DNA of 64,000 nt from Psammoneis japonica (GCA_008632985.1 QPGO01000107.1:1-64000); one strand, 5' to 3'; shown: positions 27,459 to 64,000, counted from the stretch's first letter. Numbers and translations: made by a program. Notes: a model not told the origin generated them from the letters alone.

Positions 27459-28888
<1,430 letters not shown>

Positions 28889-31979: not shown

Positions 31980-33386
<1,407 letters not shown>

Positions 33387-35339: not shown

Positions 35340-35359
35340 ATTTGTCAATGTTAAGATCA

Positions 35360-41540: not shown

Positions 41541-42862
41541 GTTCGTGGCCGGTTAAAGGAAAAGAGAAAAAAAGAGGGGATTCGACCGTTGAACACACAC
41601 ACAATTGACCATGCAACCAGGGCCAGAGTTGCACTGGCTTCTTTTGGTCCAGGGTGGTTGCTGCAGGTGCAAAGAGATGTGACACTGAGTGTGTGCCACC
41701 AAGCTGAGCAGCCCAGCTTGGGTGTCAGCCAAGCCCTGCCAGGCCAGCTGCCCTGGCTCCAGCTCTGCTCTTCCCAGTGTGCGCGAATTGTTGAAGGAGC
41801 ACCACATTGACTCAAAGGCTGTGTTTTGAGTGGGGTAGAGAGAAAAAAATGTCATCTTGACTGGTGCTTGCTTCAGACCCTGCATCATGAGTGCAAGCTC
41901 CTCTTGAGAAATGAGCAAGAACAGCCATTTTTGGTGCCTCTCTTTGGCTGCCCACTTGGCATTGCCAACAAATCTTGAGCCGAACTTCGCTCACAGTTTC
42001 TTCACTCTTCAACCACAAAAGCAGGTTCAACTTTTTCTTTGTGACCGGGGTTGCTGTTGCAGACACAAATGGTGGGCACATGCCATGTGGCTGCTTGGCG
42101 ACAAGAATGTGATGCCAAGCATGTGATGCTGCACACCAAGGAGCCAAGCAGCCCAGCTCAGCTTTGAATGGAGCCCCAGGACAGCAGCCAACTCTGGGTG
42201 ATTTCAGCATGGTTTGCTTGTTCAAGCTGTGCTGCACTCACCCCACAATGCTCTGTGTTGTGGTGGCTTCTTGTTGCAAGCCATGGCTGAGTCAGCAGCC
42301 AGCCAGGGCCCATCTTGCAAAGGCCACACACACATGTTGACCCTGTGCAAAGCTGTGTGAGGGGCCAGGCGCAGGAATTTGAAACAATGGCTTCACAGCC
42401 ATTGGCCCCAAGTTGTCATTTGGTTGGGAGCCATTGCTGAGGGGCTGTGAAGTGTGGGGTTGCGAGCCCAGCCAGGAGCTCACACTCTGTCACAAAGTGC
42501 TGCCACAGCTGTCTTTGCATTGCAGCCAGCCAGGTGTGGTTGACCCCAAGTTGGCACTTGATTTAGAGTGACTGTCAAGGAGCTGTGAAGTGTGGGGTTG
42601 GGCAGTCCAGCCAGCTCACACTCTTTGCTGACAGCAGAAAGAGCTGTCGCAGCTGTCCTTGCATTGTGGTGCCAGCCAGGTGCACACATGGCCAGAGCAG
42701 CCTTGGCACATCCCGCTGACAAAGCTGGCAAAGATGGCGACTCTTGTGGTTGAGCCACCCAGCATGCAGGAGGTCTGGGCACACTCCTGGGAAGTCAAAT
42801 GGGAAGGAGGGCTCAGCATTGCCGCCAGTGGCCGTGCCAGGCACAAATGTCAGCTTGTCTTG

Positions 42863-43139
42863 TGACAGAAAATTGAAGGCAAATGGCAAGAATTCAAACA
42901 ATGACTCCTTGCTGCTGTCTAAATGGCAGATGAGTCTCCGCTCAGAGACCGTTGCAGGAGCCGAAAGACATGCAAGTCGGCACAATCGGGCTGCTGTTGT
43001 TGTTCTTGTGAGCCTTGTGGCTCGAAAGCAAACTACATCGCGCGTGAACGCGCGGAACTAAAGCACACAAAACTGTGCACGGCAAACTAAACAGCGCGCG
43101 ACACTTCGCGCGCACCCAAATCCTGTTCAAATCCTGTCA
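42863..43139 (-). repeat. Copia 3' LTR (277 bp)
   Basis: Direct repeat of 49703-49980 with TG...CA termini. Confidence 0.95.
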
Positions 43140-46100
43140 CTCCCCAGTTTGCTTGAGGAGCCACAGAAACAGATTCAACTTCGGATGGAATGAAGTTCCA
43201 GAACATGAGGGGGCGGAGAAGGTCCCAGATTTGGGAGCAACCCCAATGCTTGCTGAGAATGTCAGCAGGGTTGCGGGAGCCTTCGATGAAGTGGAACTCA
43301 AGGTGGCCAGAGGCAATTGCCTCACGCACACGGTGGAACGACAGTGCGGTGTGTCGCTTGTGTAACTTGGAGTGCGGGATGGTGGCACTGTCTACAACCG
43401 ACTTGTTGTCACCGAACATGCAACTAACGTTACGGATCGGGACGCCAAGGTGGCGCAGGGTGATGCGCAGGTCGACAATCTGCTCAACACAAGTCCTTGC
43501 GGCAACAAATTCAGACCCGCAGGTCGCAGTCTCCACGGTGGCTTGTTTCTTAGAGAACCAATCAGCCGGGAATTTGTTGAGGAAGTGGAGCATTCCCATG
43601 ACAGAGCGTCCGGTGAGCATGCAATGGTGCAAGTTTGCATCGACGCAGTGGGTGGCAGTGACGAACTTGCCAAGGGGCGGTGGAGCATCCTTCAGGATCA
43701 TCTCTTCTGCTTCACCATGCACGGAATGCATCCATTCATAGGCCGGAGCAGGGAGATCCGAATGGTCGGGCTCTTCCGTGCGAACGCGGAGAGCACCGTG
43801 TCGCATCTTGGAGAGGTGCCCACAGACGCGTTTGGCACGATCCAAGTGGCCTTGACGGGGCGCAGCTCGGAAGCTAGAGAGTGACATGACGGCCGTGGTG
43901 ATGTCAATTCGACCAAGGGACACTGCCCATTGGAGTGAACCAACAAGAGACTGGAACTTGTGAATGCCATCGGGTCCCAGCAGTTCGGAAGTGTCCAGTT
44001 CGGGGTGGTCACCCTTCTCTAGAGGTGACAGGGCGTTGGTGGCAGGTTTCTCCCCAAACAGTCGGGCACAGCTGTCGACCATGCGCTCGATGTACTTGCG
44101 CGGAGACAGGCACAAGGTTCCGTCAGGTTCCCGGGAAAAGTCGCAACCCAGATGGAACTCAATGGGTCCCGCACCCTTGAGCTTGAACTTGTGCTTTTCC
44201 GTGAGAGTGTCGACGAAAGATTGAGGGTCCTTCATGGCAATGGCGAGGTCATCCACACAAACGGCAATGCATTCACAGTGGTCGCCGTTCCTGCGCATCC
44301 AAATGTCGGGTTCGGCGCGGCAGGGGAAGAAGCCTTCAGCTCGCAGGCAGTCGGCGAAGCGCTCGTGCCAGCGGAGACCGGAGCTGCGCAGTCCATGCAG
44401 TGCCTTGTGGATGACAAGGATGTGTCCTTCGAGTTTGCCGAACTGGGGTCCAGCTGCAATGTAAAGCTTCTCCTTGGTGGTGGCTTCAAGGCAGGCATTG
44501 CCAATGTCGGTGGCCCATGTCTCCAACTCGTTGAGTTCGGCCAGGAAAATCATCAGCCGAAGGCCACGGAGGGAGACTGCTCCGGAGCAGACACTGTCGA
44601 CAGGTACGTCCGTGAGGTGCCCGTCGGCTACGAGTCATGCCTTGTGGCGACCGTCGTGTTTCACGTCGCACACCAGGTGCACTCGGATCTTCTTGTGTCC
44701 CGCAGGAGGAGTGGAAGACTTGAAGGGCCCGCAGTCATGGAAGACTTCGCATTCGTCGAGTTGGTCCATCTCGAGATTAGTTGCGTCTCCCCACTTGCGG
44801 TTGCCGTTGCGTTCGTCTGGTGACATGGCGTGTTTGCAGTTCCGGGGAACTTCGCATCCACACTTGCAGCGAGGTGCAGTGCGGAAGGAGCGAAGCTTGG
44901 CTTGGTTGGCCATGCGAAACAGCTTCTTTTGGCACCTCGCGATGGTGCGGAACCGCTTCCAGCCATCCGTGTCGAGGAGTCCGTTCTCTCGTGCACAGAT
45001 GGCACAGGTGACGGGGTCATCCTTGGCGATGATGGCAAGAGGCTCGGACGTGATCTCCCCACTTTCCCATTCAAGCATGATGTTGTAGCTGGAGCCTTTC
45101 CAGGTTGGGTGGTGAGGCTTCAGAGGTCCTTCGTGTGACACGATGCGTCGAAATTTCCAAACAGTGGTGTCTTCATCTTCTTGCTCAATGTGATTCATGA
45201 TGTCATTGCAGGCAAGGACTTCCTCGCACTCGTCATTGTTGACAGAGCAGACGAACTTAGTGAGCTCGGGATTGCCGTTCACTTTCCATTCGTGGTCTTC
45301 GACGGCCTTGACGATGCGAGCTCTGTGGCGTTGTCCGTCCTCTTGTGGCTGCATGAGGAAGGTGCGTCCAATGATGTCTTGCGGATCGAAAACTGGCATC
45401 TTGGGTGTCCTGATCTCCCCATCAGGAGAGTCGACGGGGTTGTCGTCATGGCGAGATTTGATGATGGGTTCAGGTGGCTCCCCATCAGGAGGATCAAGAT
45501 GCAGGTTTCGAACGGCAGGATCGGGGGTAGCGGAGCGGACGTTGGACCGGCAGAGGATCTTCTGAGTCTCGTCAGATAGAATCTTGAAGGTCATCTGGTG
45601 GCCGACGTGCTCAGCAATGCCAACGAAGCATCCACGCAACTCACGGGATTCGGACGGCCAATCGGAGTCATCGAGGTGGAAGCACACGGGTTCCCACCAG
45701 TGAAAGCGAAGCAATGGGCTGATGTCCGGGGTGGAGCCAGTGAGAGTCTCGAGGGGCGTGCGCCAGTGGAGACGTGGGGACGCTGCATGGTTGAGCATGA
45801 AGCACACGCACATGAGCGCCAGCAGCCATGTGTGGGCGGGCGAACCAAAACGATCCATGACAGTGTTCGCCATGCACTTCACGGTCTGGCATCGACGCTC
45901 GGCAAAGTTTTGGTGTTGCTGGTGAGGCTCACTTTGCCAGCTAGAGATGAAGAGGGCGCGTAGGATCCCGAGCACTTTGTTGCTGATCTCAACTTGAGCA
46001 CGGTCTCTAATGAGTTTGGATGGGGCACCACGTTCACGGATCTGATCCTCGAGTGTGTTGACAAACTCTTTGTCCGTCTCAGTGCCGCAGACGTCAGTGA

Positions 46101-48756
46101 CGGTAGACTCGGTGCCAACAAACAGTTGGGCGCTGGTGCAACCAGAGTCGACGGCCGGGGTGTCGGCACAAACGGTGTCAGTGGCGACAGGCTCGTTGCG
46201 GCGGTGCACGTTAAGGGCGGGGTTGGGTGATTTGTAGGCTTTGCGAAGGTGTGTGCCGGCGGGCATGCGGGCGTGCTGCGTGGTGCAGTCAAAAGTACGA
46301 CGGACCGCATCGGCAGGTGGGAAGCCAAAGTGAGGCCGAAGAGACTCGAAGGGGGGGTCCTTGGGCTGTACAGTGCGCTCCGGAGGTGGAACGTCATCGC
46401 CCTGGGGGCCAATCGCATGCAGATGACACTCGTAGAACACGTCGTCGTTCGGAAGGAGGTGATCATCGAGGGCGGACGCGTGATCGGCAGACAAGGAAGC
46501 GGACATGATGGTCTCGTTGACAACGACACGATGACGGCAGTTGCCGCATTCGTCAAACAGGTTGGCAGTGGGATCGTCCTGTGGGTCAGAGATCGCGTCG
46601 CACCACTGGTCGTCGTCAGTGACAGAGTGATCGAGGACGGAAGGGTCCCATGTGTGATCACCGGTGAGGATGACATGGGGCAGGGTGTCCCATTCGGCGT
46701 CAGTGTAAGGTCGCATGGCAACACAAGGCAGGCCAGCCTTGATGTCAATGGGGGTGACACAGCCATCAGGAGTGGCAATGCGTTGCAAGCCGTTGGGCAC
46801 CTTGACAGAGCGATCGTTGACATCCTGTTTGCACCATTCAAGCTGGCCACAGGAATGGATGGTCTTGCCCTTGCCCGTGCATGCGCACTGATGGAGGATG
46901 GCAATGACGGGACCACGCTGGGTCTCAATGACGGCACCAGCGGTGACAATGGGGATGTCCACCAATTGATGATCGTCAATGCCCTGAACGTCGACTTGGC
47001 GAGAGGTGCGTGCAATGACGCGAACGTCGTCGCCAGCAATGCTGCCGTTGGCCCCACGATCGACTAGAGCGCCAGTGCGTGTGGAGCGATGAGCAGAGGC
47101 AGAGCAAATGACATTGTGGTTGTCAACGCGGCGGCAAGTGCGGCCGTTAAGTTCCATGTCATCTGCAGAAGCTGGCGGGGTAGAGGAAGCGGCGGATGGC
47201 CCCGGTCGACTGGCATTGGGGGCTTGGTTAGGAGACAACAGACGTTGCAGATCACCGGGTGGCAGTGGCTTGCGCTTGGTGAGGTGCGCCAGGATGGGAT
47301 CATCCGAAGTGGCGTCCACATGTGGAGCGGAGTCACCAGAGTCAGCAGGAGTCGTGTTGGACAAGTTGACATCACCGTCACTCCCAAGGCGTTGGTCGTG
47401 AAGGTTGGCCGTAACAGACTCATGGCAGTTGCTGGCTCGCGGGTTGCGGGGAGGTGGACGAGAATGCTCAAGGATGATCGCCTTGGAGGAATCGGGCAAC
47501 GAATCCCAGAGCCGTTGGTGGTCGGGAGGGAGACGTCTCCATTGGACACCGGTGAGGCTGGGACCGCGGGTGCAGGCAGCATTGGCTTGAAGGACGTCAA
47601 CGTCGCTGTCAATGTCGTAGAACACATCGTCGGACGGTTCCTCGGAGCAGACGTCGTGTGCGTGTGTGGCGCGTCGGGGAGCTCGAGGTGTCGTCTTGGG
47701 TTGAAACGTGCTGTCGCACTGAGCTGCCGCGGAGAGGAGCAAGCCACAGCATTGATCGCATGTGAGGCTCTTGCCACTCTGCGTACGATGCTGATCAGCT
47801 TGGTTCTTGACAGCACGGAGTTCCTCGACAGGGTGCACAGCATTCTCGAGCATGACGCGCTTCTGTCCTTCAGAGAAGTGGTCACTGGCCGGGATGAGTG
47901 CCTCGCACTTGCGCAACTGATCTTGCCAATGAAGGATGAACCCGTGGGTCGGACCTTTCCAAGTGCCATCACCAAGACGCTCGGTGGTGAGGTGCGTGAG
48001 CAGGGTGGAGGACTCGACAGATGCGTGGGTGGAGGCAAGCGCGCACTCAGACAAGGAGCGGCAGACAGTCTGTGCGTCAGAAGACCCCACATTTTCGCGA
48101 ATGAGAGCCTTGCCCTTGTCGGTGAGAAGGATGCGTTCGAAGACGGCGAACATGTGCTTTTGCTGTTCAGCAAAGAGCAGTTTGTCTTCGGGGCTGGTCG
48201 GTTTGTACGACGAGTCTAGAATGCACTCGACGTCTTGGGCACGGGCTTGTGCCACAAGTGAGGTGTGCCAAGTGTGCCACTGCTTGTCGGATTTGAGAGC
48301 CGTGAAAGTGGTGGGATCACGCTTGATGCCTCGCTTGAAGTCCCGCACCGGGTCGCGTGCCTTGGTCGGGTTGGTGACATGTGGAGGTGCAAGGGGTGAG
48401 CTGCCGATGGACACAGAAGACATGCAGTCGGGGCTGAGGCGGCAGGCAAGGAACTCGTCATGCGTGAACAAAGAGGAGTCGTTGGCAACGTCAAGACCTT
48501 TGTGTGCTTTGACAATGTGCAGACTGACCAGTGCTGCTAACATGTTCTCACAACCACGGGGCAAAGGGATCACATTGGCGCCGTTGTCGCACTCAAGCGA
48601 GTCGATTTGGGACGGCATGAACGTGGACAGTTCCTGACGCGAGTCCGTGCCGTCTTGGGCCAAAGCCAAACGAAGAGGACTCCCAGCACCTTGGGCAAGC
48701 ACGGTTCCAACCACGTGCTCGAAACCATCGGTTTGTTGCTGACGAGTGAGAACCAT
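43087..48756 (-). pseudogene. Copia gag-pol polyprotein, single frame with one internal stop, TpA-converted
   Basis: Protease LVDRGANG; integrase VATDT, RDRAQ, QNFAER; RT VKHDGRHKA*LVADG, DIGNAC, KALHGL, AVCVDDL; RNase H CVDA, GSEF, GDN, NPADILSK. The TGA at 44635-44637 is probably from CGA. Confidence 0.93.
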
Positions 48757-49702
48757 GGCAGACAAAAGTGGTGTCAGGATGATCAATTCTGGTTGGGAAG
48801 CGAAGGTGGACTCGAAACTTGGGTGAGAACAGACTTGACTTGAAACAGACTTGACTTGAAATCTTGAACTGTCTTAAAATCAGAAGTCGCCGGGCTTTGT
48901 CATCCCGTTCGTTGTCAAGTGCTAAACTTCCCATCCGGTCCGTAGAGTTGTGCCGGCACGTCCGAACCCGCAGCCAGTGGCGCTTTGGGTTGCTTGCGAG
49001 CGGAGCAGCGGGTTGCAAACCCCTGCAGGTGAGCTGACCAGAGGTGGACAAGACCCCCGAACCGTTCTTATTTTTTACATCGGTTGGATTTCCCGATCAG
49101 GCTGGCCAGTTGATGCAGGCGTCAGGCGCTGTGGACGAACGAACAAACGCGGGAAAGCACCCTCGCCCCAACGTGGGGCTGCAATCACGGCTGCTTGCTC
49201 TCACAGTCGTCCTCGTGGACCTGGTGGAACTGTGGAGCACCAGCAGTCCAGGGTAGATCAGGTGCAATGGACTCGGTGTGCTTGTAGAGTGGCAGCAAAA
49301 CCGCAGTCCGAAGAGTGGGTGCAGGTTCTTGGCCGTGAAGACATGTGTGTATGTGCACACATGTCTTCAGCGACGAAGATCCTTGAACATGTAGGGTTCT
49401 TGACCGTTAACCGATGAACAGGTATGTCAAGGGATGAGGATCAAGGACAGACTTGGATGTGACCGTTGAATGTATGTCTTCAGCGATCAAAGGCAGCACA
49501 ATCAATCCAGACATCCAGCGGTGAGGAGACTTGACGGTGACGTCAACTTCCTGCCGATGCCCTGGCATTGAATGCGCGCAGACTTGCCGATGTATGTAGA
49601 GTGTATACGGAGGTCCACGTAGAATTGAAATAGCGTCGTTGGTAAATCAACGACGACGATGGCGGTTGCTCAATGGGTTGACAATGAGCAAGACTGTCAA
49701 TC

Positions 49703-49980
49703 TGACAGAAAAATTGAAGGCAAATGGCAAGAATTCAAACAATGACTCCTTGCTGCTGTCTAAATGGCAGATGAGTCTCCGCTCAGAGACCGTTGCAGGA
49801 GCCGAAAGACGTGTAAGTCGGTATAATCGGGCTGCTGTTATTGTTCTTGTGAGCCTTGTGGCTCGAAAGCAAACTACATCGCGCGTGAACGCGCGGAACT
49901 AAAGCACACAAAACTGTGCACGGTAAACTAAACAGCGCGCGATGCTTCGCGCGCACCTAAATCCTGTTCAAATCCTGTCA
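49703..49980 (-). repeat. Copia 5' LTR (278 bp)
   Basis: Direct repeat of 42863-43139. Confidence 0.95.
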
Positions 49981-51057
49981 TCTTGAGAGAGATTTGAGCC
50001 CACACAGCCCCGAGTTGGGTGTCTTGGCTGGCAAGTTAGAAAGCATTCTTGAGCACATTTTGGGATGTGGGCAGCACTGTCACCAAGAGAGCTGTTCTGC
50101 AGAGGAAGAGGGAAACAGGCAACAACATTTTGCAAGAGCTGTTTTTGTGTCAATGGTCGGGTGGGATGGGGCAGCATCTGGACTTTGACGGAGCATTTGG
50201 TGGACAAAGCTTGAGCACAGAGAGCTGTCCACTCAAGCTCCACAAGTGGCACATTTCAAAGGTGACACCAATGTGTTCATGCATCAACATGCCTCAAGCT
50301 GCAAGTCACACAAAAAACCACCACCAACCTTTCTCAACCAACCACCATCATGGACAGAACAGGTCAAGAGGCTCGAAACAAGAGTGATTGCTTCATTGAC
50401 TCTCTTCTTGTTTCATGCATTCAAGAGCTTGTTCTTGTCCTTCTCAAATGTTTGTTGTGCATTGTTGTCTCTTTTAATTCAAGTGCAAAGAGGAGTCACT
50501 TTTCTTGTTTCTGTCTCTTGAGATGTTGTTGGTTGTTGAGTGATGCAATTTTTGTTGCTTGTCACATTTTTGGAAATGTTGGCAAACCCGATCACTGCTT
50601 GATTGTCAACCCATTTGCTGTTTTAAGTCTCCATGGCACAAAACACCATAATTCCAGAGCCCTCAATTGTTTCATCAAACGCAGTGCTTTGAAACACGTC
50701 CAACATCAACTCGACTCAGTTGAAATCCCAGTTTGTGGGCGATGAAAAATCACGAATGTCAAACAAATGGCTGCTTTCGACATCAAGATCCCCGAGTTCA
50801 ATCCAAATGTGACGGCACGCCTCACAGCTCATGGCCATGACACACACAAGCATGCCTTGTTGTTGTCATCGCGTGTGCTCGCATCGAAAATGCCGATGGA
50901 TCAAAGTTCAGGAAAAGGATGGAATGCAAATTCATTTGTGCATTCACTGGAGTGGCATTGGCGTAATGACATTCACGGCAGAAGCGATCAAAAATCCTCA
51001 CTCATCATTGACATTTCTGCATTGCTCAGAATTTGAAATCTGACCACCACCGTCAAG

Positions 51058-51175
51058 CATTTGGCTTTCTTTGTGTCGAAGTGGAAACGACACTTGACGA
51101 TTTACACCAACCATTTAGCTTTCTTTGTGTCGAAGTGGAAATGACACTTGACGATTTACACCAACCATTCAGCTT
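51058..51175. repeat. 54-bp tandem repeat (about 2.2 copies)
   Basis: GCTTTCTTTGTGTCGAAGTGGAAA(C/T)GACACTTGACGATTTACACCAACCATT twice. Confidence 0.9.
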
Positions 51176-51532
51176 ACTTTGGCTCAAAGTCAGACAATGA
51201 GATTGGGTCATGGGCTTGTCATCAACCAGCCACGAGCATGAAATCTTTACCGCAGTTCCTCCCAGCCAGATGGAAGAAGAGAAAAGGAAAAGGAAGGAAA
51301 AAACAAACATTGGTGAAGGTTTGAAAGGGTGCGCTGCAGCACCGTAGTGCATGCAGCAGTGAAGACGGACATAGACAGGCACAGACGTGCTGCGTCCTGA
51401 TGCGTTGGGCATGTGGAATTTGGTGCGAAGTGTCACACGTTTGCGTGCGCAGAAGGATGTGGATCGCCAACGGCTGGAATAAAGCAGCACACCACACAGC
51501 AGTCAGTGCAGCTCTGTCATCACGGCGCTAGA

Positions 51533-53005
51533 ATGGCGGAGGACAACATCATTGCGTCTGGCAAAGCAGAGGATGTGGCAGCTCCGGAAGTCATGGCAGA
51601 ACTCACGGGCGCCGAAGGCGCGGCGGCAGCTGCCATGACTGCACTTGGCGCCGAGGGAAGTGCCGAGGGTGTGTCCGTCGAGTCCGAACGCGCAAGGATG
51701 TCGGAGAAGCCGGCGCAGTCCCAAACTGAAAAGAGGGAGAAAGCCGTGCTGCCAGAGCCAACCTTTCAAATTTGTGGTTGGAATGAAGCACAGCAGCTGG
51801 GTCACACCGCTGAGCAGCTCCTTGAGGCCGGTTGCAAGATCGAGTTGGTGGGTGATCAGGCCACCTTTGTGAAACCGGAGGTCCTGCCTTTTTGCAGCGG
51901 CAAAAGCGAGGAGGCAGCCAAGCCCGCGGCCAAAGTGGTCACGAAAGCAACGGCGGAAGAGGAAGAAGAAGGAAAGCAATTTCCGGACCCCAACGAGCCG
52001 TCATTCGACTTGTGGGACTGGGTGTTGCGGCACGAAAAATCCGACAATTTCCAGGAGTCCATGTGCCTGATGAAGGATGCGCCAAACAATCCCGACCTCT
52101 GGTTCCCCGCGCTGGGAGAACTGGGGTGCATCAGGAGCGACCCTGAAGCCGTCGCGAATGCTCACGGCGAACACTGCAAGTGGGTGTGGAGGTGCCGCAC
52201 GGAAGTCGGTGAGAGGGGCATCCCAGACTCGACGCCGAAGAGCAACAAAGTGTTCAAGACCACCGTCGAGGCTTTCGAAGTGGGGTGGTTGCTCACACTG
52301 GTCCACCTCGTGAAGAGAGTGAGCACAGAAGTGTGCACATTTGGATGAGGTGCCGTGTCACTTCAACCTGCGTTGTTTTGCCTCGAAAAGTCCGTTCGCT
52401 CCGCAGGCCCCAAGGAGGTGGAGGTGGGCGAGCTGCGCATGTCACAACGGAGGGGCAAAGGCATTGGTTTTTTTGCTTTGCACCAGTTCCAGAAAGGCAG
52501 TGCGGTTGGAATCTACGTGGGCCCCAGGGTGCCCGGTGCGACGAGGAGCCACTCGTGGTGCGACCATGACAGCAAGTTTGGAGAAGACCACAGCATGTGC
52601 TGCTCCACCATCCGTGACAGCGAGGGCCACTGCGTCACAGTGGAGCCAAAACCGCTTGATTTTAGCGGTCCAGGGAACAAGAATTCCCATCCACTCTACC
52701 TCGGAATGCACTGTGTGAACAATGCCACCGAGTCGTTCAAGGACAAGAAGAAGATCAAGGCAAGCCAACATGCGGACAACAACTGCGAGTTCTACAACGA
52801 CGGGTGCTTGGCAGTCACGAAGCGAATCATGCCCAGGGAGGAATTTCTCTCCAGATGCAACTTGGACGAATCGGAGAAGAAGAAGAAGAAGAGGAAGGCA
52901 ATGTCGGGTGCCATGAATCGGAAGAAGAAATCGCGTCTACTCCCCAAGTTGGGGGGGAGAAGCTCTGCGTCTGGCAAAACGTTTGCCGTGCAGTGTGCTC
53001 TGTAA
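51533..53005 (+). pseudogene. SET-domain-like protein (probable Helitron cargo), one internal TGA
   Basis: ORFs 51413..52348 and 52355..53005 are in frame. C-terminal GIGFFALHQFQKGSAVGIYVG...MHCVNN...NNCEF..DG....TKRIMPREEFLSRC follows SET motif order. Confidence 0.6.
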
Positions 53006-53615
53006 ATTAGCAGCACAGGACGGGTTCCAGTCCCAGGTGGGACTTTTTGTGACATTGGGCCTGCAGAATTCTACGTGCGAGCTCCGCAGTAAAATCATTG
53101 AGCAATGGACATGTGAATGATCGCCAACAGAAAAAGAGGCAATTTTGCGAACGTGTCTCCTCCTCCACACTTGAAGTGCATTCTTTACAGTGTGCCCGGG
53201 CATGTTCTTTAGACATTGAAGAACACACCCAGCGCATTTTTGTTGACACAAGTGCAGATGACAGAAAGCCTTTGGCTTCGCAAAACAGGCAGTGTGGAAC
53301 AATTTTTTATGATGGAACACGCAGAAATGTGCGTGCGAAACATGCGACGGATGACAAAAAATAATTGTGTCACAGTTCAGCAGTGCGAGGTCCCACCTAG
53401 AGCTGGAACAAGTCACAGTGTGTTGGTGTTTTTCAGCGAAACTGTGGCATTAGTTGGAAAGGCGCAGCCCTGGTTGTGGTTCGAAAAATGGGAACGAGGA
53501 AGAACAGAAAGTCGGCAAATTTGCGCAAATCCAGCAAATTGGCAGGTGCCTGCACAGTCGCCTGAGCACAGAAAGTCAGCAAATTTACGCAAATTTAGCA
53601 AGTTATTTTGCGCTG

Positions 53616-55085
53616 TCACAGTCGCCTGAGAATGGTCTCTTCCTCTAGAGAAAGGGGGATTGAATTGTCACTCTTGCCCACCACAGCACTCTTCAGGTGG
53701 AGAGACACACAGAAGAACTCGTCGTTTGAGTTTGTCCTGCTGGAGATGCAGCGGCACTTGGTGGGGTTAAAAATGATGACATCACCAAGCCGGAGTGCAA
53801 TGGAGATGCCTTCGGCGGGGAAGCAGAAGTGCGCCACAATCCCGTCATTCATGGTGTGGCTGCCGGACGGAGGGACTCCCACCACGGTGACCACTGACAG
53901 GAAGAAGTCCTGGCCCCAATGGGTGTTGAGGAAGACATTGCGCCCAGCCGCCAGAGAGGAGAAAATGCCATCTGACCGCACCAGGGATTTCCAGTTGTGA
54001 AACTTTTTGACACGAGTGATGCCCTTGAGGATGGCACAGTCCACGCACTCATTGACAAGGTGCTCCATGCATGAAAGAAGTCTGGTGAGGTGGTGAGTGT
54101 GTTGGTCGGCTGTGCCAGGCTGCTTGCAAGAAATTCGAGCGTCTCTCGTGGCAGCCAGGCCAATCGTGGAATGCTTGCTCCTGTCCGTCTCCATGAAGGT
54201 AACGCGTTGTTTGCTGTGCACGGTGGACTGGGCGGTGCAGCATTCTAGTGCTTCGAGCGCTCGGCACTGAGCAACCAGTTCTGCTGGGTTGGGGGAGCTG
54301 AACACCACAGCAGAACGCGGCAGCAGGGTGCAGGTGTTGTCGCAGCGGCAACCGTCCAAGCCAAAGAAAGGCTTCAGATCGAGCACAGGGTCACAGACGA
54401 CCAGAGGAGCCAATTCGGCAAAGTCAATGTCAGCAAGACAAGGTGGTGCAGGCTGAGTGCAGTCGCCATCACAAACTAGAGTGCGGTCAGCTACGCAGTG
54501 CATGGAGAGACTCTCAGTGGCGCACGGTGCGAGTGGAACGAGGCGAGCAATCTTGGATGTTTTCCTGCTGGCGCGGCTGCGGATTCGCCTGCGGCTGCGG
54601 TGGGCCTTACGAAGTGGCGGTTGAGCCCTCAACACGTTCTCATGTGTCCTGGCATGCATTGACGATGCGGTGTTCGCAGAGAACGTGTGTGCGAACTCAC
54701 CGGCAAATGTTCCGCTGCTTGACACTGTCACTGTTGTCTCAACAGTGCCCAAAGCAGAACTCTGTCGACAGGGACCGGTGGACTCCAGGGGAGTGGGGTC
54801 AAAACCCAATCGAGAGATGTGTCTGCTTTCCATTGCCTCAAGAGCACCCAAAGCAAAACTCTGTTGACAGGGACCGGCGGACTCCAGGGGAGTGGAGTCG
54901 AAACCCAATCGCGAGAAGCATTTGCTTGTTGTCGGGCTGTGAGCTGCACGTCCCAAACCCCCACACTGTCGAGACCGGCTGTAACTTGATCGCGACAAGT
55001 GCTTGTCATTGGCAGGACGACGCAGCGAGGCACGAGGCAGTTGCAACATGGTGTGTCTCAATTTGAAATGTGTTTCAAAATGCAA
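53616..55085 (-). pseudogene. 2OG-Fe(II) dioxygenase, TET/JBP-like C-terminal domain (degenerate)
   Basis: NTHWGQDFFLSVV...HFCFP..GISIALRLGDVIIFNP..CRCISS...CVSLHLK fits a DSBH layout, with altered HxD and distal His positions. An in-frame 99-bp repeat lies at 54747-54917. Confidence 0.5.
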
Positions 55086-55379
55086 TGACGGAAGTGTTGT
55101 CGCGTTGTTTTTGTCTCCGCGGAGGGAGGATCATCCCACGGCAATCTCAGCACGAGTTCTCGCGTAGAAGTGCGTTGCGTGCCATGCCAGCTCGTGCGTT
55201 TGAATTGCACGGACACACAAGTGCGGCAACGATGAGAAGCAGGCCGAGATTCAAAACAAATTTTATCGCCCAAAGGCGTCTCATTGTTTCAACGCATCCA
55301 CATGTCTGTTTAAAATGACTTCATGCATCGCTCCATGCGCAGGTAGAGGTGGCACGCCGCGTTTGAAAATTTCGCGCGC

Positions 55380-56366
55380 ATGGAGGGCGCGACGGCACTT
55401 TTACGCATTCTGCGCACGTCACAGTTTGGTTTGGAAACGCGACGTCTGGTCAAACCCGCTGCAAGCAAGGTTGATGTTGCCACAAGGTTGGATGCGATGA
55501 ACCATCGTTGCAGAAGTGTGAGGGAGTTTTATCTTCAAACGGCTCCGGACTCCGTGTTCCAGAGCAGGCGTGTCTCCGGAGACGGAAGCAGATCTTCGCA
55601 CGGCGGCGAAGTTGGCTTCGCTTTGAGCAGCGAAGTGTTTTTGAACGAATGCCTTCTTGGCGTGAATCACACCTGCGATGCATCTGTCGACATGGGCGGG
55701 GGAGTTGCCGGACCCAGCATCGGGCTCAAGTTACTTCGTCGCCGTTGCACCGTGGTGAGCATCGAGGCCGACCACGATCATCACCAAGAGGCTGTACGTT
55801 GGGCTCATTGTGCTGGCCTTCACTCGAACGGCGGGTTAGAGTTGATCAACAAGTCATTCTTGGACAAGAGGCTGGCTCCTTTGTGGAAAAAGAAAGGACT
55901 CAAGGTGTTCTTCAACAACTGCAACTCCCGCATGGTCGACGACAAGAACACACAGCAGAAGGCAGAGGCGATGCTTTCGAAGTTGTGTCGTGCTGGGACC
56001 GTGGTGGTGGCGCTAGATCCGCTGTTCGCGTCGCACGCAGGAGAGTGGATGTGCGAGTCCTTCACGGCGGATTGCCATGATGGCGACTTTTTGTGGCACA
56101 GCGGAGACGTGAAACATCTCGTCTTCCACAAGCACACCAAGAAAGAGGAGACTTCTCAGTCAACCAGCCAGCACGTGCGACATCCCACTCCGACACACTT
56201 GGAACGGAAGCATTTGCCCATCGCGAAATGGCCAATTTTACTTAAGAACTCAACTGAACTGTTTTTTTGCCATCACTGTGCTGGACGTCACATGCCAGTT
56301 GCTCCACTCAATTCGCCATTGCTTCGCGGTGACGACAAGTTGTCGTCGGAGATGGTGCACACTTGA
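55380..56366 (+). pseudogene. Class I methyltransferase, DOT1-like (degenerate)
   Basis: GGE...D..VDMGGGVA (motif I), VVSIE, SFLD, KVFFNN, L..LCRAGTVVVALDP resemble the DOT1 motif series (GE, DLGSG, GIE, F.NN, G..IVS). Confidence 0.55.
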
Positions 56367-56455
56367 AGAGACAGAGGAAAGCTGAGTTGCAATCGACACT
56401 TGGTTTGCCAAACATTTACAAATTCACACTGCACCGGCAAAAAAAAAAAAACAAC

Positions 56456-57328
56456 TCAGTCTTCGTCACTGTCCTGAAGCACCAAGTCGTCATCGACGTT
56501 CAGGTCAACTTCGCAGTTGAGCTCGACATCATCGTTGGCCTCTTCTCCAGCTTCTTCTGCCGGAGCTCCAATGAGACGACAGAGTTCCACAGGCAACGAC
56601 CCCTCGTAGAAGCAACTGTGAAGCAAGTTCTTGTTTTGGGCGCACCAACCGATGTGAAACTGACCACCTTCCTTCTGAAGCTCGGCAAGCGCCGCCTCGT
56701 TGCCGATCACTTCGGACCAAACAGCATCCTTCATCCAGAAGAAGTCGTCTTCAACGAAGACCTCGGTGTTGTTCTCAGGGTCATCGTTGAGCTGCTTCGC
56801 AATGCACTTCCCAAGGCCGCGCACTTTAGCATCGGTTGGGACTTCTTCGAGGAAGATGAAGAAGAGACGCACGGCGCAGTTCTTGGCGTTCGTCTGCAAC
56901 TCGCCTTCATGAACCCACCTGCCAGCATGAGGGTGGAATCTGACTTGAACCGCCCACGGAGTCCTGCTGCGAAGGTTGTCAAACAGAACCTTCTCCGACC
57001 AAACATTGGCCAAAAGGGGATTCTTGGCTTGGAGACAAAAAACGACGCCTTTCTTGTGGCCGACAGTGACGGTGGCGCAGCGCAGGAGGGCGTCCTTGTC
57101 GGAATGGCTGCCATTGTCAGAACCAGCGGATTTGGAAAGCTTGAACCCGTGCTTGGCAAGGTGGTCTTCCGGTTTAAGGTCGTCGTTGGTCAAGCCGTTG
57201 GTCTTGCGGGGCGGACTTAGTTTCTTCAACAGAGCATCAGAAAACTTCGTCTTTGCCTTCTTCTGTTTGGTTTCGGCGACTTTGGCTTTCGCAGCCGGGG
57301 AGGTCGTTGTGTTTCTTTTGCGTGCCAT
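56456..57328 (-). pseudogene. TpA-converted ORF of unknown function, basic N-terminus and acidic tail
   Basis: MARKRNTTTSP... about 290 codons with a single Tyr. Confidence 0.4.
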
Positions 57329-57870
57329 CGAATCAGTCGGAGAGAAATTGTGGGAACAAAAAGTGCGATCGTTCAGAAGTGCCAAGAAAGACCCAGCAGA
57401 GCTGTGCACATCATGCCAAGGAGAACTGGCAACGTCAGCAACTAGATCCAAACACGTCAAACTGCAACAAGGTGACCTTCCAGGTGTCAGCACTTGCAAG
57501 TGGTGTGTGGACTCAATTTGAACAAAACAGGTGCAAGGATCAGAGCACGCAAAGTCGCACTGAGTTCACTGAAAATGCGCAAAATCACGCGCAATTCCGT
57601 CCGTGCTTCATGTGTGTTTCAGCCGTTGCTGCCGCGCGGCCATCGCTCACGAAATCTAGTCGCCAAACGGTCGACGCCATCGCTGTCACTGCTGTGCCGG
57701 CAGTCAGCTAAGGTGGGCCCATCACCCATTTGGAGGATTCGCGCGCACTTTGGAAACACCAATGACATCAATCGCATTGTCGTTGCCACACGACTGACTC
57801 AACTGCCCCGCCACTCGTTAAAGCGTGATTCCACGGAATTTGCGCAAAGCTGCGCCCACCACCAAGATTG

Positions 57871-57975
57871 CCGAAACAACTTGAACAAGATCCGAATCTT
57901 GCCCCATGGAATGTTCAGAGCAGATGGTCGAAACAACTTGAACAAGATCCAGATCTCATCCCATGGGATGTTCAA
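57871..57975. repeat. 57-bp tandem duplication
   Basis: CGAAACAACTTGAACAAGATCC....CCCATGG.ATGTTCA twice. Confidence 0.8.
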
Positions 57976-58159
57976 CGTCGACGAAACTGAGTGGGATGTC
58001 GTGCGTCTGGTGCAAAGAAGGACGTGGGAGGAACGCACACGTCACTCTTCCGTCAAGGTGAAAGAGGCACACTTTCGTCTCACTTTTTTGTGACAGAACC
58101 TTTGCGCAAGAAAAACGAAAAGCATCCAACTGCGGTGATTGGGCCACACTGATCACAGT

Positions 58160-58810
58160 TCTCAGTTCTCACAGTGACCTGGCAACGCAGGTTGTGAGAT
58201 GACGCACAAGCTCAGCTGCGGTGGCTGGACGACACCAGTCGCAGCTCTCACAGAGACCTGATCGCACAGGTTGTGAGAACACGACACAACGCTGCGGTGA
58301 TCGGATGGCACCGACGCAGTTCATCAAGCAACTGATTCACTTGGCTGCGGTGACTGGACGACACCAGTCGCAGCTCTCACAGTGACCTGATTGCACAGGT
58401 TGTGAGCAAACAACACAGCGCTGCACCTCGCAATGCAGGTTGTGAGACAACGCACAAGCTCAGCTGCGGTGACTGGACGACACCAGTCGCAGCTCTCACA
58501 GAGACCTGATCGCACAGGTTGTGAGAACACGACACAACGCTGCAGTGATCGGGCAGCACCGACGCAGTTCGTCAAGCAACCAATTGGCTCGGCTGCGGTG
58601 ACTGGACAGCACCAGTCGCAGTGCTCACAGCGACCTGATTGCACAGGTTGTGAGAAGACGACACAGCGCTGCGGTGAACGGATGGCACCAACGCGGTTCG
58701 TTGATCAACTGGACAGAACCACTGCGGTGACTGGACGACACCAGTCGCAGTGCTGCAGGTGGTGAGAAAACACACATCACTGTGGTGATTGGATGGCACC
58801 GATCGCAGCT
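58160..58810. repeat. Array of about five 119-129-bp hairpin-containing units upstream of RepHel
   Basis: Core CTGCGGTGACTGGACGACACCAGTCGCAG at about 58215, 58344, 58463, 58592 and 58721. Confidence 0.88.
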
Positions 58811-58895
58811 TCACGGTGATCGCACTGAAAAAACAACTGTTTTTGCTGAGTGACTTCTTGAAATTTGTTGAGTCAAAGTGCCAGCTTAAATTAAA

Positions 58896-61800
58896 ATGGA
58901 CGAGGCCAACTCCCGTGTTTGTGGTGCAATCAATGGAAAGTTTGAGATGCTTTGTCTGCATGGAGATGGAGAATTTAGACCACACGTGTGTTCAGTCTGT
59001 GACGTTCTGCTGAAACCTAGAGAAGTTTGCTGCTTGCCGCTCGAAACATTGGAATCAGCAAGAAACTCACTCACCCCTTCAGACTGGAACAGCGCATCTG
59101 ATCGTCTCAAGTCCTGCCACACTGTAGAGCATGAAGATGCTGATTGGATCAAAGACCTGCTGCTTTCTCCCCGTGCCCAACACGTGGCACAGGAAGACAG
59201 ACGACGCGTCGACGGATTCACTTGCTGCAGCGAATGCCGAAGAAGCCTGGGAAGAGCCGTTGTGCCAATGCACGCGACAGCAAACAACTGCTGTTTCGGT
59301 GCCCCGCCGCACGAACTGTTGTCTCCAACCAAAGTAGAATTGGCAATGCTCACACCAGTGAAAACATGTGGATGCTGCTTCAGTTGCCTTGGTGGCAAAC
59401 AGAAGAAGCTTCAGGGAAGTCTGATGTGCTACAAAGTCAAGATGCAACGCATCGTAAGAACTGTTGTGCACTTCGACGTGCTGAATTTACATCAGAGTGT
59501 GATTGCACTGATGACTGGAAAGATGACTCCGGAGCAAAGACAACTTGTGCGTTCAAAGAACAGAATTAGGATGCACTGCATGCCAAGGGCAATGGAATGG
59601 CTGTTGCACCACAACCAAGAGTGGGTGTGCCAACAGATGAATCTAGATGAAGTCAGGCGCAATCTGCGGAATCCCGCACTTGTTGACAGCACCAGCGAAG
59701 AAGAAGGAGAAAATGCGAACATTGAGACCTCAGAGTCATTTCATGTTTGCTTTCCTGATGGAACCATGTCTCCTGCGACCGGTGGTCAGCGCAACCTGGG
59801 CTGCTTCAAAGATCTTGTGCATGAAGCTGCTGCCAACGGATTTGATTTAGAGGTGCAAGCGCAGTTGTCCAAAGAATCTGCGAGTGATTTCAAAGGCAAC
59901 AACTTCATTGGCGCGTGTCTGCTGCAGTTTCCTTTTGGCAGAGGAGGAATCAATGAGACGAGAATGAAGAAAGACGGAAGTCTCACAGATGGCACCAACC
60001 TTGCACACCATGCCGACCACTTGGCATGGATTTCCCAGCCTCACTTCCATGAGCAGCTCTTCGTGTTAATGTGCTGCAACTTGACAATGAAGCAAAGGAT
60101 GCTGCAGAGCGCAGGGTGGAAAGTCAGGGACAAGAATCAGGCTGCACAGTTTGCAAACGAACTGACAGTGGACGATGTGGACAGAGCTGTTTGTGATCAC
60201 AACTTGGGCGAGAGAAGAGATTGTGGACTCGGGCACCACTTTTTGCGTGCACTCGACGTTGCATCTGCGTCTCTGCCACACAGCAACGAAGCAGCAAAGA
60301 AAATGAGGAGAAACGCCAAAACTTGTCAGCATCATTTTGGCCAGGGTGGCATTTTCTTAACCGTCAGTCCGGACGATGCAAATTCGTTTCTTGTGCAACT
60401 GCACTCGGGTGTCATCCTGGACCCAAACGAAGACGTGACACAACTGACGGACGAAATTCTTGCTGGCAGGGCTGAGCAACGCAATGAACTGCGTCTGAAG
60501 TTTCCCGGTCTGACAGCCTTTGCATTCGAGTGCTTGTTTGACATTGCAACAGAAGAGGCAGTGGGTTGGGATCTGAGTGCTGACCAACCAAGAGAAAACT
60601 TTAACTTCTACATTGGCAGGCCAGCCGCATTTTTAGCCACAGTCAAGGAGCAGGGACGTCCAACAGCACACGGACACATGCAGATCTGGTTCGCATCGAT
60701 CAACAATGCAAGAGAGAAACTGCATTTGCCAACAAGACAGATCCGACGTGAAGGTGCTGAGTGCCTTGCCAACATGGTTCAGAAGATCTGCAGCACGGAG
60801 CTAATCTGCAGTGAGGACTTCAGCACCAACGCGTTGCGTGAAGCATTCGATCATGACTGCACAGTGCCAAAAATGTGTCGCACCTCTCCAAAAGCAGCAG
60901 ACGACCAACAGCTGAGAAGCCTGAGGCACAAAGACGGCCAGCAGTCGAAGAACGGAATGTTTGCTTGTTGTCGTCACTGCACCAAGTGCTGGACAAACGT
61001 CGAGTTTGTAGAAAGCTTTTTACAGTCACGGCACCGTGCACCTGGCCTGACTCACTGTCCAGACAACCATGCAAAGCAACTAAAAGCAATGTGTGTACAG
61101 TGCCAGCGAAGTGGTCCGCAAGGGACAACAGAGGCACACACACCGGACGCAGCTTACAACCATCACATGCACGTTACGAAGTCATGTTTTCCCAAATGCG
61201 CAGAGTCACGTAAAATGCGTAAAAAAACCCCACACGAGGAACTGGACACGCAGTCAAGGAAAAGGAAACGAGAGGAGCTCAAACCAGGTGACTGCCGTCA
61301 CAGGCAACCAGCTGCTTCGTGTCCAAATGATTTGGCAAGGAACGCAGATGACACTCAGATAAAGTGGTTCAGCTGGGATGGAACTTTTGCGCATCGGTGC
61401 ATGAAGGAAGTTGTTCCGAAGAGGAGAAAGTGCAATGCTTTTCAAAACGTGTCGTGCCCTGCAACAAGCAGATCAAAACTGACATGCAACACAAACATTG
61501 CTTCATTGATGCCTGGACCGTCCACTCAATGCACGATTGAGTGCATCCTAAAAGATGCCCAGAAAGATGACACTGCATCGTACGACGAAGTGCTTCGAAC
61601 TACGAACAGGACAGCGACGGAATTACAGAAACACGCATCTGATGCATCGGAAGCAATCAGACGTCTCACATGGGGTGCTCACTCGCACAACAAGACGAGC
61701 GTCATTGGACCACCACTTGCGTCTTACACAAGAAGGAACGGAAGCCGTTTCATCGAATCTCATTTGACCGCATGGGGCCCCTTGAAAGACATTGTCAGCA

Positions 61801-64000
61801 CACTAGAAAGAGATGAAGTGTCTGCGACTGCAGCCCATTTTGGCGATGCACCGTTCTTCCAATGCCAGGCCTTGCACTGCCCATGTCGTCCAACAGCACT
61901 GGAGAATCTCAGTCCGTTTGCGTTTTTTAGTGAGTGCGAAGTTCTTTGCAACACAAGGAAAAATGAACACGGCATGATGATGTTCGACAACAGAGCGCAC
62001 GGGCACCCATCTCACAATTCAATGAAGAATGAGTTTCTTCAAGGTGTCAGACAGCGACAGCAACCGCGATTGTTGAAAGCACTTCAGTGTGATTTTCCTG
62101 ATGCAGCCAAGTTTGGCAGTTGCCTTGCAGATCTGCAGCAACCAACAACACCAGACAAAGAATTGCACTGCAAGTTGGCATTGGCCTTGTTTGCGCCTTG
62201 CAGAACAATGATGGAACTCAAACCAACAACCCATGCACACCTGCGTGAATTCCAACTCTCCGCAGCAGCCGGTGTTGTTGCAGAGGAAAACTTGAACTTC
62301 TTGCAGAACCTGCAGGATGCTAAGTCCAACTGCCTTCATCTCAAAAGCACATCTGACGATCTGCAAAGAAAGACGGAGCAATTTAGACCTGCTGACGTTG
62401 CGTTTGACTGTCACAAAAGTGACAAGGAAGAAGGTCTTTCAGGTGCCGTTCAGGGTCAACCACTGGATGCACTCTTGGAAGAAATGGCAGAGCAGCCAGA
62501 AGACGATGACATTGGGTTGAGCGACCAAGCAGTTGTTCCTGCACATTTGAGCGGCAAACGTGCAAGACAGAAAGGTTCACACATGGGTGGCTGCAAATGC
62601 TTGGCAGACATGCACACTGACCCACCAAACGAGGAAAGCCAGGTCAATGAACGACAACTTTTTGAGAATCTAGAGGGCGGCGATGACACCGATGAGGAAG
62701 ACCAGAATGAAGGAGTGCAACAACACATCCACAGCAGACCTCTGTCAAGAGACGACATTGTTCAAGCGATGCTGACTAGAACGCAAAGAACAAGAAGGTC
62801 GTTTGAGGACATGACAGGTTTGGAAGAACACGTCGATGTACGTCAAGCAAACGGATCTGCAGCAAGTGTCGTAGACTGGGCTGGGAAAGCAAGACTGGAC
62901 AGGCAACAGCAGCGTGCCTTTGAAATTCTAGCAGGAACCTTTGTGCTCACTTGCTGCCAAGACGCTCTTCAAGACGAGATGTCACGCAATGGACTCAACA
63001 GGAGAAACAGCAGACACAAATTCGCAACAAACCTTCGCCGATTGAAGAAACTCGTGGAAGTGCAAAGACGCAGAACGTTGCAACTTGTGTGTTTTTTACA
63101 TGGTGCAGGTGGAAGTGGCAAATCAACCACAGTGGACCTCGTCGTGGAATGCGGAAGAGAGCATTGCTCGCTTGTTGAGCAGCCGTTCACAACAAGCACA
63201 ATCAGAGTGACTGCACTGACCGGAGTGGCTGCGACTGTTCTCAAAGGGGGCACAATCCACCGAGTTGCACACCTTGTGAGAAGAAAGCAAATGGCCGAAG
63301 AGCAAATTGAAGCATGGTCAGACACGAGACTTTTGGTGGCAGATGAGATTTCTTTTGCAAGCAAGAGAGAACTGGAAAAACTCCATGAGAATTCAACAGC
63401 ATTGAAGAGCGAACCAAGCAAGCCGTGCGGTGGCATCAACATTGTTTTCGCAGGTGACCTCAGGCAACTAGAACCAGTCGGAAAAGGAGTGAAACCACTG
63501 TGCAAAGATGCATGTCCCGAGTTTCACGAGTGGATCAACTGCTGCACAGAACTTCGTGGTGCGCGCAGGTTCAAAGACGATCCATCATGGGGAAAACTGC
63601 TCAAGAGATTCCGCACTGGTGAGATTGCAGTTGACGATGTAGAGCACATCAACGAACGAGCAGTTCAGAACGAAGATGATCTGCCCAGTGACCTCCGCCA
63701 TGCCACGTGCGCAAATAAGGACAGAGATGCAATCAACACTGGCCTGTTCGAAAAAAGAGCAGAAACACTGCATGGAAGAGATGGAGACGTCCTTGACTCA
63801 ATGTTGATTTTCAGTGACGACTTGCAGGTGCAGAATGGCACGAGACTCTGCCAACCATTTCTGGTTTGCAACAGCTTCTGGAACAACTGTGGTGAAGGAG
63901 ACGTTGTCATGCAATCAGGAAGAATGGATCCAGTCTTGTGAATTTGCAGAAGATGCAGAGTCATGACACCTTTCAACGAAAATGCAGCAAACGGTCAAGC
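58896..64000 (+). mobile_element. Helitron Rep/helicase (HUH endonuclease plus PIF1 helicase), TpA-converted, runs off the window
   Basis: FPFGRGG, FLTVSPDD, EQGR..AHGHMQIW (HUH), CNTNI...CTIECILK (YxxxY position), GAGGSGKS, DEIS, GGINIVFAGDLRQLEPV, RFKDD. The TGA at 63939-63941 is probably secondary. 5 Tyr in 1681 aa. Confidence 0.9.

Follow-up and report, generated by a model that had tools for sequence, protein, structure and literature searches.

The stretch analysed here comprises 64,000 nucleotides of Psammoneis japonica DNA (GCA_008632985.1 QPGO01000107.1:1-64000), which we call the window and in which all positions are counted from the first letter. Its right-hand part, from 51533 to the end, contains four open reading frames (ORFs), G1 to G4, which we refer to as the cassette, followed by a long ORF for a Helitron replication-initiator/helicase protein, RepHel. 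A preliminary description had read this part as a giant Helitron whose passengers, resembling a SET lysine methyltransferase, a TET/JBP-like dioxygenase and a DOT1-like methyltransferase, rewrite histone and DNA marks, possibly as counter-defence against silencing. The features of this part are as follows:

51533-53005, plus strand: G1, a 491-codon frame with a single in-frame TGA at 52346-52348; the SET-like ORF occupies 52349-53005
53616-55130, minus strand: G2, a predicted TET/JBP-fold 2-oxoglutarate/Fe(II) dioxygenase, with its first Met at 55049 and the catalytic domain at about 53619-54533
55380-56366, plus strand: G3, a class I S-adenosylmethionine (SAM)-dependent methyltransferase, possibly DOT1-related, divergent from G2, with about 250 base pairs (bp) between the two genes
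56456-57565, minus strand: G4, 369 codons, or about 290 amino acids (aa) from its first Met at 57328, with a basic, Lys/Ala-rich N terminus
58130-58813, no strand assigned: tandem repeats with units of about 129 and about 248 bp (81-90% matches), directly 5' of the RepHel start codon
58896-63941, plus strand: RepHel, the Helitron replication-initiator/helicase ORF, 1681 aa, with Pfam matches

To judge from its domains, the RepHel ORF is a genuine Helitron protein in which a Rep/HUH nuclease is fused to a PIF1-like superfamily 1 (SF1) helicase. It matches the Pfam families DUF6570 (42.3 bits, E 1.3e-10, cut-off 24.3), Helitron_like_N (35.0 bits, E 2.1e-8, cut-off 28.9) and PIF1 (51.2 bits, E 1.6e-13, cut-off 25.9), and AAA_30 and AAA_19 likewise exceed their cut-offs, which bears out the Helitron ORF named in the preliminary description. 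The helicase match covers its profile only up to position 162 of 223, and 59 bases separate the end of the ORF from that of the window. Tyr makes up 0.3% of its residues, and the catalytic Tyr residues of Rep have likely been lost from this copy.

G2, which lies 3.8 kilobases (kb) upstream of RepHel, was assigned through its predicted structure. As it stands in the window, the ORF gives no Pfam, NCBIfam or PDB sequence match and no homologue in a word-indexed search. HMMER searches against 1.84 billion representative sequences recovered a family of 625 clusters at E≤1e-3, of which 352 reach E≤1e-10 and 2 reach E≤1e-30, and the closest representative has 42% identity. The relatives that bear a name come from two diatoms, Seminavis robusta and Fragilaria crotonensis, where they are annotated as hypothetical proteins, and from one metagenome-assembled genome of Comamonadaceae. 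The C-terminal 305 residues of G2, aligned with 58 relatives, were modelled by AlphaFold2 with a predicted local distance difference test score (pLDDT) of 90.6 and a predicted template-modelling score (pTM) of 0.90. With this model, ranks 1-22 of the rows listed by Foldseek are all CcTet, CMD1, TET2 or NgTET1, with template-modelling (TM) scores of 0.41-0.51 and E values from 2e-7 (the best, for CcTet) to 1e-5. VIA-align agrees, its 16 best PDB entries being all TET/JBP proteins with Z from 17.5 to 13.1, against at most 11.6 for AlkB, ABH3 and FTO; TET2 comes first (Z 17.5 over 252 residues, root-mean-square deviation 3.8), followed by CMD1 (14.8), NgTET1 (14.7) and CcTet (14.3). The model has in common with these four proteins the double-stranded beta-helix core and the TET-type N-terminal extension over 205-257 aligned residues, at a sequence identity of just 8-13%. 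In contrast to the solved TET/JBP structures used for comparison, no Cys-rich or CXXC part was seen in G2. A language-model search, Atlas, scored the TET-like part at 0.96. The modelled fold of G2 is thus TET/JBP-like, while its sequence family falls outside the Pfam model, and the 625 clusters, which combine a confidently predicted TET-like fold with the lack of any Pfam match at E≤1e-3 in the 51 members scanned, make a useful target for annotation and biochemistry. Substrates of the TET/JBP family include 5-methylcytosine (5mC), thymine and N6-methyladenine.

The H-x-D...H iron triad of 2-oxoglutarate oxygenases is nearly invariant in the G2 family, the first His being present in 58 of 58 relatives, the Asp in 57 of 58 and the second His in 58 of 58. 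Of the three ligands, only the first His survives in the window copy, which encodes Gly at 207 (GGC) in the place of the Asp, and Arg at 261 (CGC) in the place of the second His. His residues at 279 and 121 occupy positions at which 55 of 58 relatives, in each case, have Tyr. With Gly and Arg at two iron-ligand positions, the G2 protein of this copy would be inactive.

G3 can be placed by its conserved motifs, which make it certainly a class I SAM-dependent methyltransferase. Direct searches of Pfam, NCBIfam and PDB with the window ORF returned noise only (DAO, E 0.022). The word-indexed search found a single homologue, P0001, at 53% identity and E 1.9e-71; at six of nine positions, P0001 has Tyr where G3 shows Cys or His. 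A metagenome scan with the G3 alignment added L001-L003, which represent one gene with 33% identity on contigs of at most 4.3 kb. In the resulting three-sequence profile, the motif I region alone aligns to generic class I methyltransferases (2b25 at E 0.0024, 2gpy at 0.006 and 3bus at 0.022); this motif, a Gly-rich stretch followed by an acidic residue where strand 2 ends, is invariant in all three sequences. Kinship with DOT1 is possible, as suggested by the L001 ORF, which matches positions 38-179 of the 205 in the Pfam DOT1 profile at E 3.3e-4, with 20.7 bits under a 23-bit cut-off, and which has an H3K79 methyltransferase, 9ne1, as its best PDB match (E 0.0058). In L002 (1-1710, plus strand) this gene codes for 569 aa or more, with a normal Tyr content; the G3-like domain is N-terminal, and another region further along resembles a methyltransferase weakly (MTS, E 0.025).

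The frame of G1 is made up of a 315-aa and a 218-aa ORF. Its N-terminal half is acidic, Ala-rich and without a recognised family. For the C-terminal part, SET identity is probable: Atlas gave a lead of 0.95 for residues 20-185 of the 218-aa ORF, and 28 of the 30 matches lie in sets that contain PF00856 (SET). According to the tool's own figures, roughly one shuffled protein in 100 scores 0.95 or higher. Several of the Atlas neighbours are from giant viruses and haptophytes. By eye, the ORF also shows a succession of GxG, YxG, an N-rich stretch and EExxxxC(Y?), which we take to be in SET order, with Cys at what would be the catalytic Tyr. G4 and G3 are convergent, their stop codons 90 bp apart, and G4 has no match in Pfam, NCBIfam or PDB.

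How much the length of these ORFs means was judged against 300 dinucleotide-preserving shuffles of 51401-58895. Loss of TpA removes TAA and TAG, so that chance ORFs are long in such repeats, and the longest ORF of a shuffle indeed has a mean of 244 aa and a 95th percentile of 336. ORF length is therefore poor evidence for a gene in TpA-depleted repeats. The length of G4 (369 codons) was attained in 1.3% of the shuffles. Taken rank by rank, the five longest observed ORFs (504, 369, 339, 315 and 295 aa) exceed the maxima of all shuffles (453, 315, 258, 249 and 215 aa). Long ORFs are also present on the plus strand, antisense to G2 (54302-55066, 254 aa) and to G4 (56333-57220, 295 aa).

The window as a whole consists of a host-gene block in its middle (24-41.5 kb), with long, mostly uninterrupted ORFs that Pfam identifies as ordinary eukaryotic genes, and of three repeat blocks (4-14 kb, 18-24 kb and 41.58-64 kb), the last of which includes the cassette and RepHel. 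Three further features are needed for the argument:

24-41.5 kb: host-block genes identified by Pfam, namely UAA sugar transporter, spermine synthase, PhyH, methyltransferase, DEAD-box helicase and peptidase
42863-49980, ORFs on the minus strand (1412 and 515 aa): copia long terminal repeat (LTR) retrotransposon with RVT_2 and TG...CA LTRs at 42863-43139 and 49703-49980
53014-53413, no strand assigned: 400-bp insertion resembling a miniature inverted-repeat transposable element (MITE), situated between G1 and G2, whose 3' ends face each other; its terminal inverted repeats are imperfect and about 22 bp long, and its 5-bp target duplication is CACAG

TpA is strongly depleted in the repeat blocks (4001-14000, 18001-24000 and 41580-64000), where its rho is 0.03-0.21, compared with 0.59 for the host genes at 24001-41500; the repeat blocks also show an excess of CpA/TpG (rho 1.3-2.0). 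The preliminary description had called the element TpA-poor and CpG-rich. The former agrees with the rho of 0.13 that we obtained over 51533-64000; the latter does not hold, since CpG rho is 0.81 in the same stretch, 0.87 in the cassette and 0.70 in RepHel, compared with 0.99 in host DNA. This repeat-specific TpA to CpA/TpG hypermutation runs in the direction opposite to that of fungal repeat-induced point mutation. At the protein level, Tyr accounts for 0.2-0.6% of the residues in the five element ORFs and in copia, against 1.6-2.4% in two host ORFs, and it is because Tyr codons are lost from such DNA that profile searches fail.

The copia element helps to order these events. It has a 5-bp target duplication, TCTTG, which indicates that 41580-42862 and 49981-51400 were contiguous before it was inserted; it sits in an older, CpG-poor repeat, and an empty-site contig is present in run X1. 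Its two LTRs are 96.4% identical, and 8 of their 9 substitutions are TA in one against CA or TG in the other (TA counts 4 and 10), which suggests that the hypermutation acted in place, after insertion. Here the TpA loss affects transposons. A second kind of change was revealed by comparing the window with the contigs of run X1. Among the 40 best-supported of 709 differences, 25 lie within 50-64 kb; at 13 of these 25 the window has TG/CA where CG is found elsewhere, and at 4 it has CA/TG where TA is found elsewhere. A TG or CA in place of CG is what deamination of 5mC leaves behind, so that the element seems to be CpG-methylated, bearing the mark that a TET enzyme would attack. The CpG decay of 50-64 kb is private to the window copy.

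Whether the five genes travel together was assessed from their layout and from the same contigs. G1-G4 and RepHel are compact and intronless, with alternating orientations, and the spacers from G1 to RepHel measure in order about 210 bp (excluding the MITE), 250 bp, 90 bp and 1.3 kb. In the ORF list and by Pfam, no host gene or second transposase was found between G1 and RepHel. Runs X2 and X3 contained next to none of the words sampled, and no RNA run was listed for the stretch. From run X1, which may be the sample behind the assembly of the window, 19,110 short contigs were placed on 44-64 kb; over the cassette and RepHel they are at most about 500 bases long, and no contig bridges genes. 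A contig over 56496-56788 in G4 (1 mismatch in 293) has a depth of 1069, and one over 60016-60433 in RepHel a depth of 1024, whereas apparently single variants have depths of about 35-70. The parts of G1-G4 and RepHel are therefore present in multiple copies. The joint 53013>53414, which is the G1/G2 junction without the MITE, has a depth of 1104 (summed over 2 contigs); other copies thus lack the MITE, which stands outside the ancestral unit. The bin that includes it (52672-53338) has a summed depth of 61,000, and the MITE has a very high copy number; a relative with 66% identity lies at 13450-13809. Throughout 51.3-52.7 and 54-64 kb, summed depth per bin is 2,300-5,300 without a step at the gap between G4 and RepHel, as against about 7,000 at 50.0-51.3 kb and 70,000-220,000 over copia. 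Joints with 22-26 letters on the shorter side, such as 49980>59348 and 49981>53219, were set aside as unreliable. The left flank also differs in CpG, with rho of 0.16 (41580-42862) and 0.48 (49981-51400) against 0.87 in the cassette. The CpG values and the depth both point to a left boundary near 51.3-51.5 kb.

Our preferred explanation, to which we assign a probability of roughly 0.5, is that an alga or protist harbours an autonomous Helitron in many copies that carries G1-G4, and that a single degenerate copy of it occupies the sequence from about 51.3-51.5 kb to a point past 64 kb. For the linkage itself, the odds that G1-G4 and RepHel form one mobile unit are even or slightly better. Helitrons move by a rolling-circle, 'peel and paste' route, with a nick made by the HUH nuclease, peeling by a 5'-3' helicase and a circular intermediate, and they insert between A and T with no target duplication. 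In an intact copy of the present element, the HUH nuclease of RepHel would accordingly nick, its helicase would peel off one strand and the circular intermediate would re-insert. The TET/JBP-fold enzyme from G2 would oxidise a methylated or plain pyrimidine in the DNA of the element, most likely 5mC, and could in this way erase or block a silencing mark set by the host. The SET-like protein from G1 and the class I methyltransferase from G3 may alter marks on histones or other chromatin proteins to the same anti-silencing end, so that the cargo enzymes would keep the element expressed. In the copy seen here, the host would then have removed nearly all Tyr codons by TpA to CpA/TpG hypermutation, CpG decay would have added further changes, and the MITE would have landed between G1 and G2. 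A role in counter-defence against silencing is a reasonable inference by analogy with what has been argued for TET-carrying transposons of fungi.

Several results weigh against this reading, and we gather them here. As to the identity of the cargo, none of 51 members of the G2 family matches any Pfam family, Tet_JBP included, at E≤1e-3; when the threshold is relaxed to E≤5, Tet_JBP is touched by 10 of 59 members (best E 0.0023, below significance) and Cupin_2 by 11 of 59. The TET/JBP-like ORF proposed earlier is thus upheld by the structural model and its VIA-align and Foldseek matches, not by the Pfam profile. A profile of the G2 family found nothing among PDB sequences at E≤1, and none of 18 long relatives carries any Pfam domain at 1e-3, so that no domain fusion was found. 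The SET-like ORF gives no Pfam match up to E 10, no NCBIfam or PDB match and no homologue by word search, and its length of 218 aa was attained in 69% of the shuffles; what speaks for the SET enzyme that had been proposed is the Atlas lead, together with the motifs read by eye. Likewise, the proposed DOT1-like enzyme is borne out as a class I methyltransferase, and its DOT1 character appears only below cut-off and through a relative with 33% identity, L001. The window ORF and P0001 have no DOT1 match in Pfam, DOT1 reaches only E 1.2 with the three-sequence G3 profile, and the AlphaFold2 model of G3 from three sequences is unusable (pLDDT 38.9). The gene represented by L001-L003, the one G3 relative whose surroundings can be read, adjoins a LIM/Costars gene, and no RepHel is found on its 4.3-kb contig.

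As to the unity of the element, the long ORFs described upstream of RepHel are indeed present, within about 7.4 kb and in excess of what shuffles produce. Their shared mutational state had been offered as an argument for one element, and this argument has to be given up: TpA has been lost in the same way from the repeats at 4-14 and 18-24 kb and from copia, an unrelated element, and a state found in every repeat of the window cannot mark out a single element. Contig depth is not copy number, as the tool itself warns, and the shorter side of the joint 53013>53414 has just 27 letters. No Helitron end (5' TC, 3' CTRR, hairpin) was recognised by eye in 41400-42870 or 49960-51560, so that the search for termini left of the cassette, which the preliminary description had proposed as a check, gave nothing; TpA mutation would have altered such ends. 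The 3' end of the Helitron falls beyond the window, and 'giant' is a relative term for a unit of which at least 12.5 kb is seen. The 5' end could lie within the 1.3 kb before RepHel that bears the tandem repeats, in which case the cassette would be outside the Helitron; these repeats may be a promoter, the subterminal repeat of a Helitron end or a satellite. Finally, the window copy is dead: given the in-frame stop in G1, the loss of two iron ligands in G2 and a Tyr content of 0.2-0.6%, it cannot act.

Possible, if doubtful, is an arrangement of separate mobile or virus-derived units side by side, in which G1-G4 belong to another repeat and a RepHel-only Helitron adjoins it. The cassette might then be a non-autonomous element, a fragment related to giant viruses or virophages, or a transposon whose transposase lies outside the window. 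Nesting of unrelated elements is common at this locus (copia with TCTTG, the MITE with CACAG), which makes adjacency weak evidence for linkage, and the 0.7-kb block of tandem repeats and the 1.3-kb gap separate G4 from RepHel. The missing termini point the same way. A viral origin is suggested by the nearest Atlas clusters of the SET-like part, which are from Nucleocytoviricota, and by one of the three clusters listed for the TET-like part, which is 80% viral; integrated viral DNA is also the target of TpA hypermutation in Bigelowiella natans, according to the accessible text of a preprint (10.64898/2026.01.13.699255). The depth of the consensus-like contigs is, however, nearly equal across the gap (1069 versus 1024), and the summed depth shows no step at 58 kb. 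Moreover, Pfam detected no capsid, polymerase, integrase or second transposase in 50-58.9 kb, and a scan of viral contigs with G1, G2, G3, G4 and RepHel gave no relative of any of them.

It is unlikely that G1-G4 are host genes or duplicates that were captured by the Helitron, or that merely lie in a repeat-rich region, and that decayed without any role in counter-defence. Helitrons are known for capturing genes, both diatoms named above have G2 relatives whose annotation is simply that of a hypothetical protein, and the G3 relative in L002 is longer, has a normal Tyr content and stands beside the LIM/Costars gene, all of which would fit such an origin. Yet the genes of the cassette comprise whole domains in their own orientations with short spacers rather than exon fragments, and all parts are multi-copy in run X1. 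A tblastn search with the cassette proteins against positions 1-50000 of the window found no paralogue at E≤0.01, and three enzymes for chromatin or DNA marks within 5 kb would be improbable under random capture. More improbable still is a partly artefactual cassette in which the SET-like ORF, G4 and the N-terminal half of G1 are chance ORFs with only TGA stops left to end them: the long ORFs of the shuffles, the antisense ORFs over G2 and G4, and the want of homologues or profile matches for the SET-like ORF and G4 would suit it, but the observed ORFs outrank all 300 shuffles, G2 and G3 possess homologues, and the Atlas lead, with its 28 of 30 matches in SET-bearing sets, is of a strength seen in about one shuffled protein in a hundred.

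The principle of a transposon with chromatin-modifying passengers is already known from fungal and oomycete elements. TET/JBP genes have been described inside eleven DNA-transposon lineages of fungi, among them Helitron1 and Helitron2, in hosts that include Puccinia graminis, Pezizales and Agaricus bisporus, as given in the accessible part of the report (PMC12730594), and SET genes are carried by the HarbingerS and MuDR transposons of Phytophthora (cited in PMC12730594). The accessible account of the fungal TET-bearing Helitrons (PMC12730594) describes the same combination as seen here, RepHel with a TET/JBP-type dioxygenase as passenger, for which a role in self-demethylation is proposed. They differ from the present locus in that the modifier lies inside the transposon, whereas here it is seen next to RepHel. 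Here, in addition, the named dioxygenase relatives are from diatoms, the family stays below significance for the Pfam Tet_JBP model, two methyltransferase genes and a fourth gene stand alongside, and the window copy is dead. The Phytophthora elements, as the same source summarises them, are DNA transposons with a SET-type methyltransferase that has been read as a means of manipulating their own chromatin, as we propose here. They use DDE transposases, in contrast to the HUH/helicase protein of this locus, where the SET call comes from a language-model lead and motifs.

The hypermutation has its closest counterpart in B. natans, where the accessible text of the preprint (10.64898/2026.01.13.699255) describes TpA to CpA/TpG changes in integrated viral DNA. 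The viral inserts show the same signature: this is the sole change, it leaves TpA depleted and CpA+TpG in excess, and it strikes foreign or repeated DNA but not host genes. The depletion is much deeper in our window, with a TpA rho of 0.03-0.21 compared with 0.45 for the nucleocytoplasmic large DNA virus (NCLDV) insert, and it falls on the Helitron, copia, the MITE and other repeats instead of on integrated viral DNA; the genes of the window are largely intronless, which suggests an organism other than B. natans. In our literature searches, near-complete repeat-specific TpA loss was found reported only for these viral inserts. The preprint proposes an ADAT2-like adenine deaminase, and its accessible text mentions neither Helitrons nor TET (10.64898/2026.01.13.699255). 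A variant in which the TpA changes begin with oxidation of the thymine of TpA by a cellular member of the large TET/JBP-like family of G2, and not with deamination of adenine, has no support of its own and is very improbable.

Among the titles listed by our literature searches, none concerns a Helitron carrying the trio of TET/JBP, SET and DOT1. The novelty of this locus would lie in a host that is not a fungus, in a dioxygenase family that the Pfam model does not cover and in the pairing of this family with two methyltransferases. If the element is what we propose, transposon-borne anti-silencing enzymes would extend beyond fungi (for TET/JBP) and oomycetes (for SET), both in host range and in repertoire, and the element would point to DNA methylation and histone marks being in active use as defences in an algal lineage that has been little studied. 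More tentatively, the locus may hold an autonomous Helitron of a non-fungal alga or protist whose three-enzyme cargo of TET/JBP-fold dioxygenase, SET-type methyltransferase and DOT1-related methyltransferase, with a basic protein besides, rewrote DNA and histone marks on the element, and which the host answered with CpG methylation and with the TpA hypermutation that killed this copy. Were this so, a multi-layer epigenetic arms race would be readable at one locus.

Two observations concern other parts of the window. A TpA-depleted block includes a 748-aa ORF with a DUF7869 match (E 6.3e-20) at 17355-19601 on the plus strand, probably from another DNA transposon; large ORFs near it (3414-5069, 7350-8519, 9012-10040 and 10134-11336) have no Pfam match. 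The sole N of the window is at 27712, within the host-gene block.

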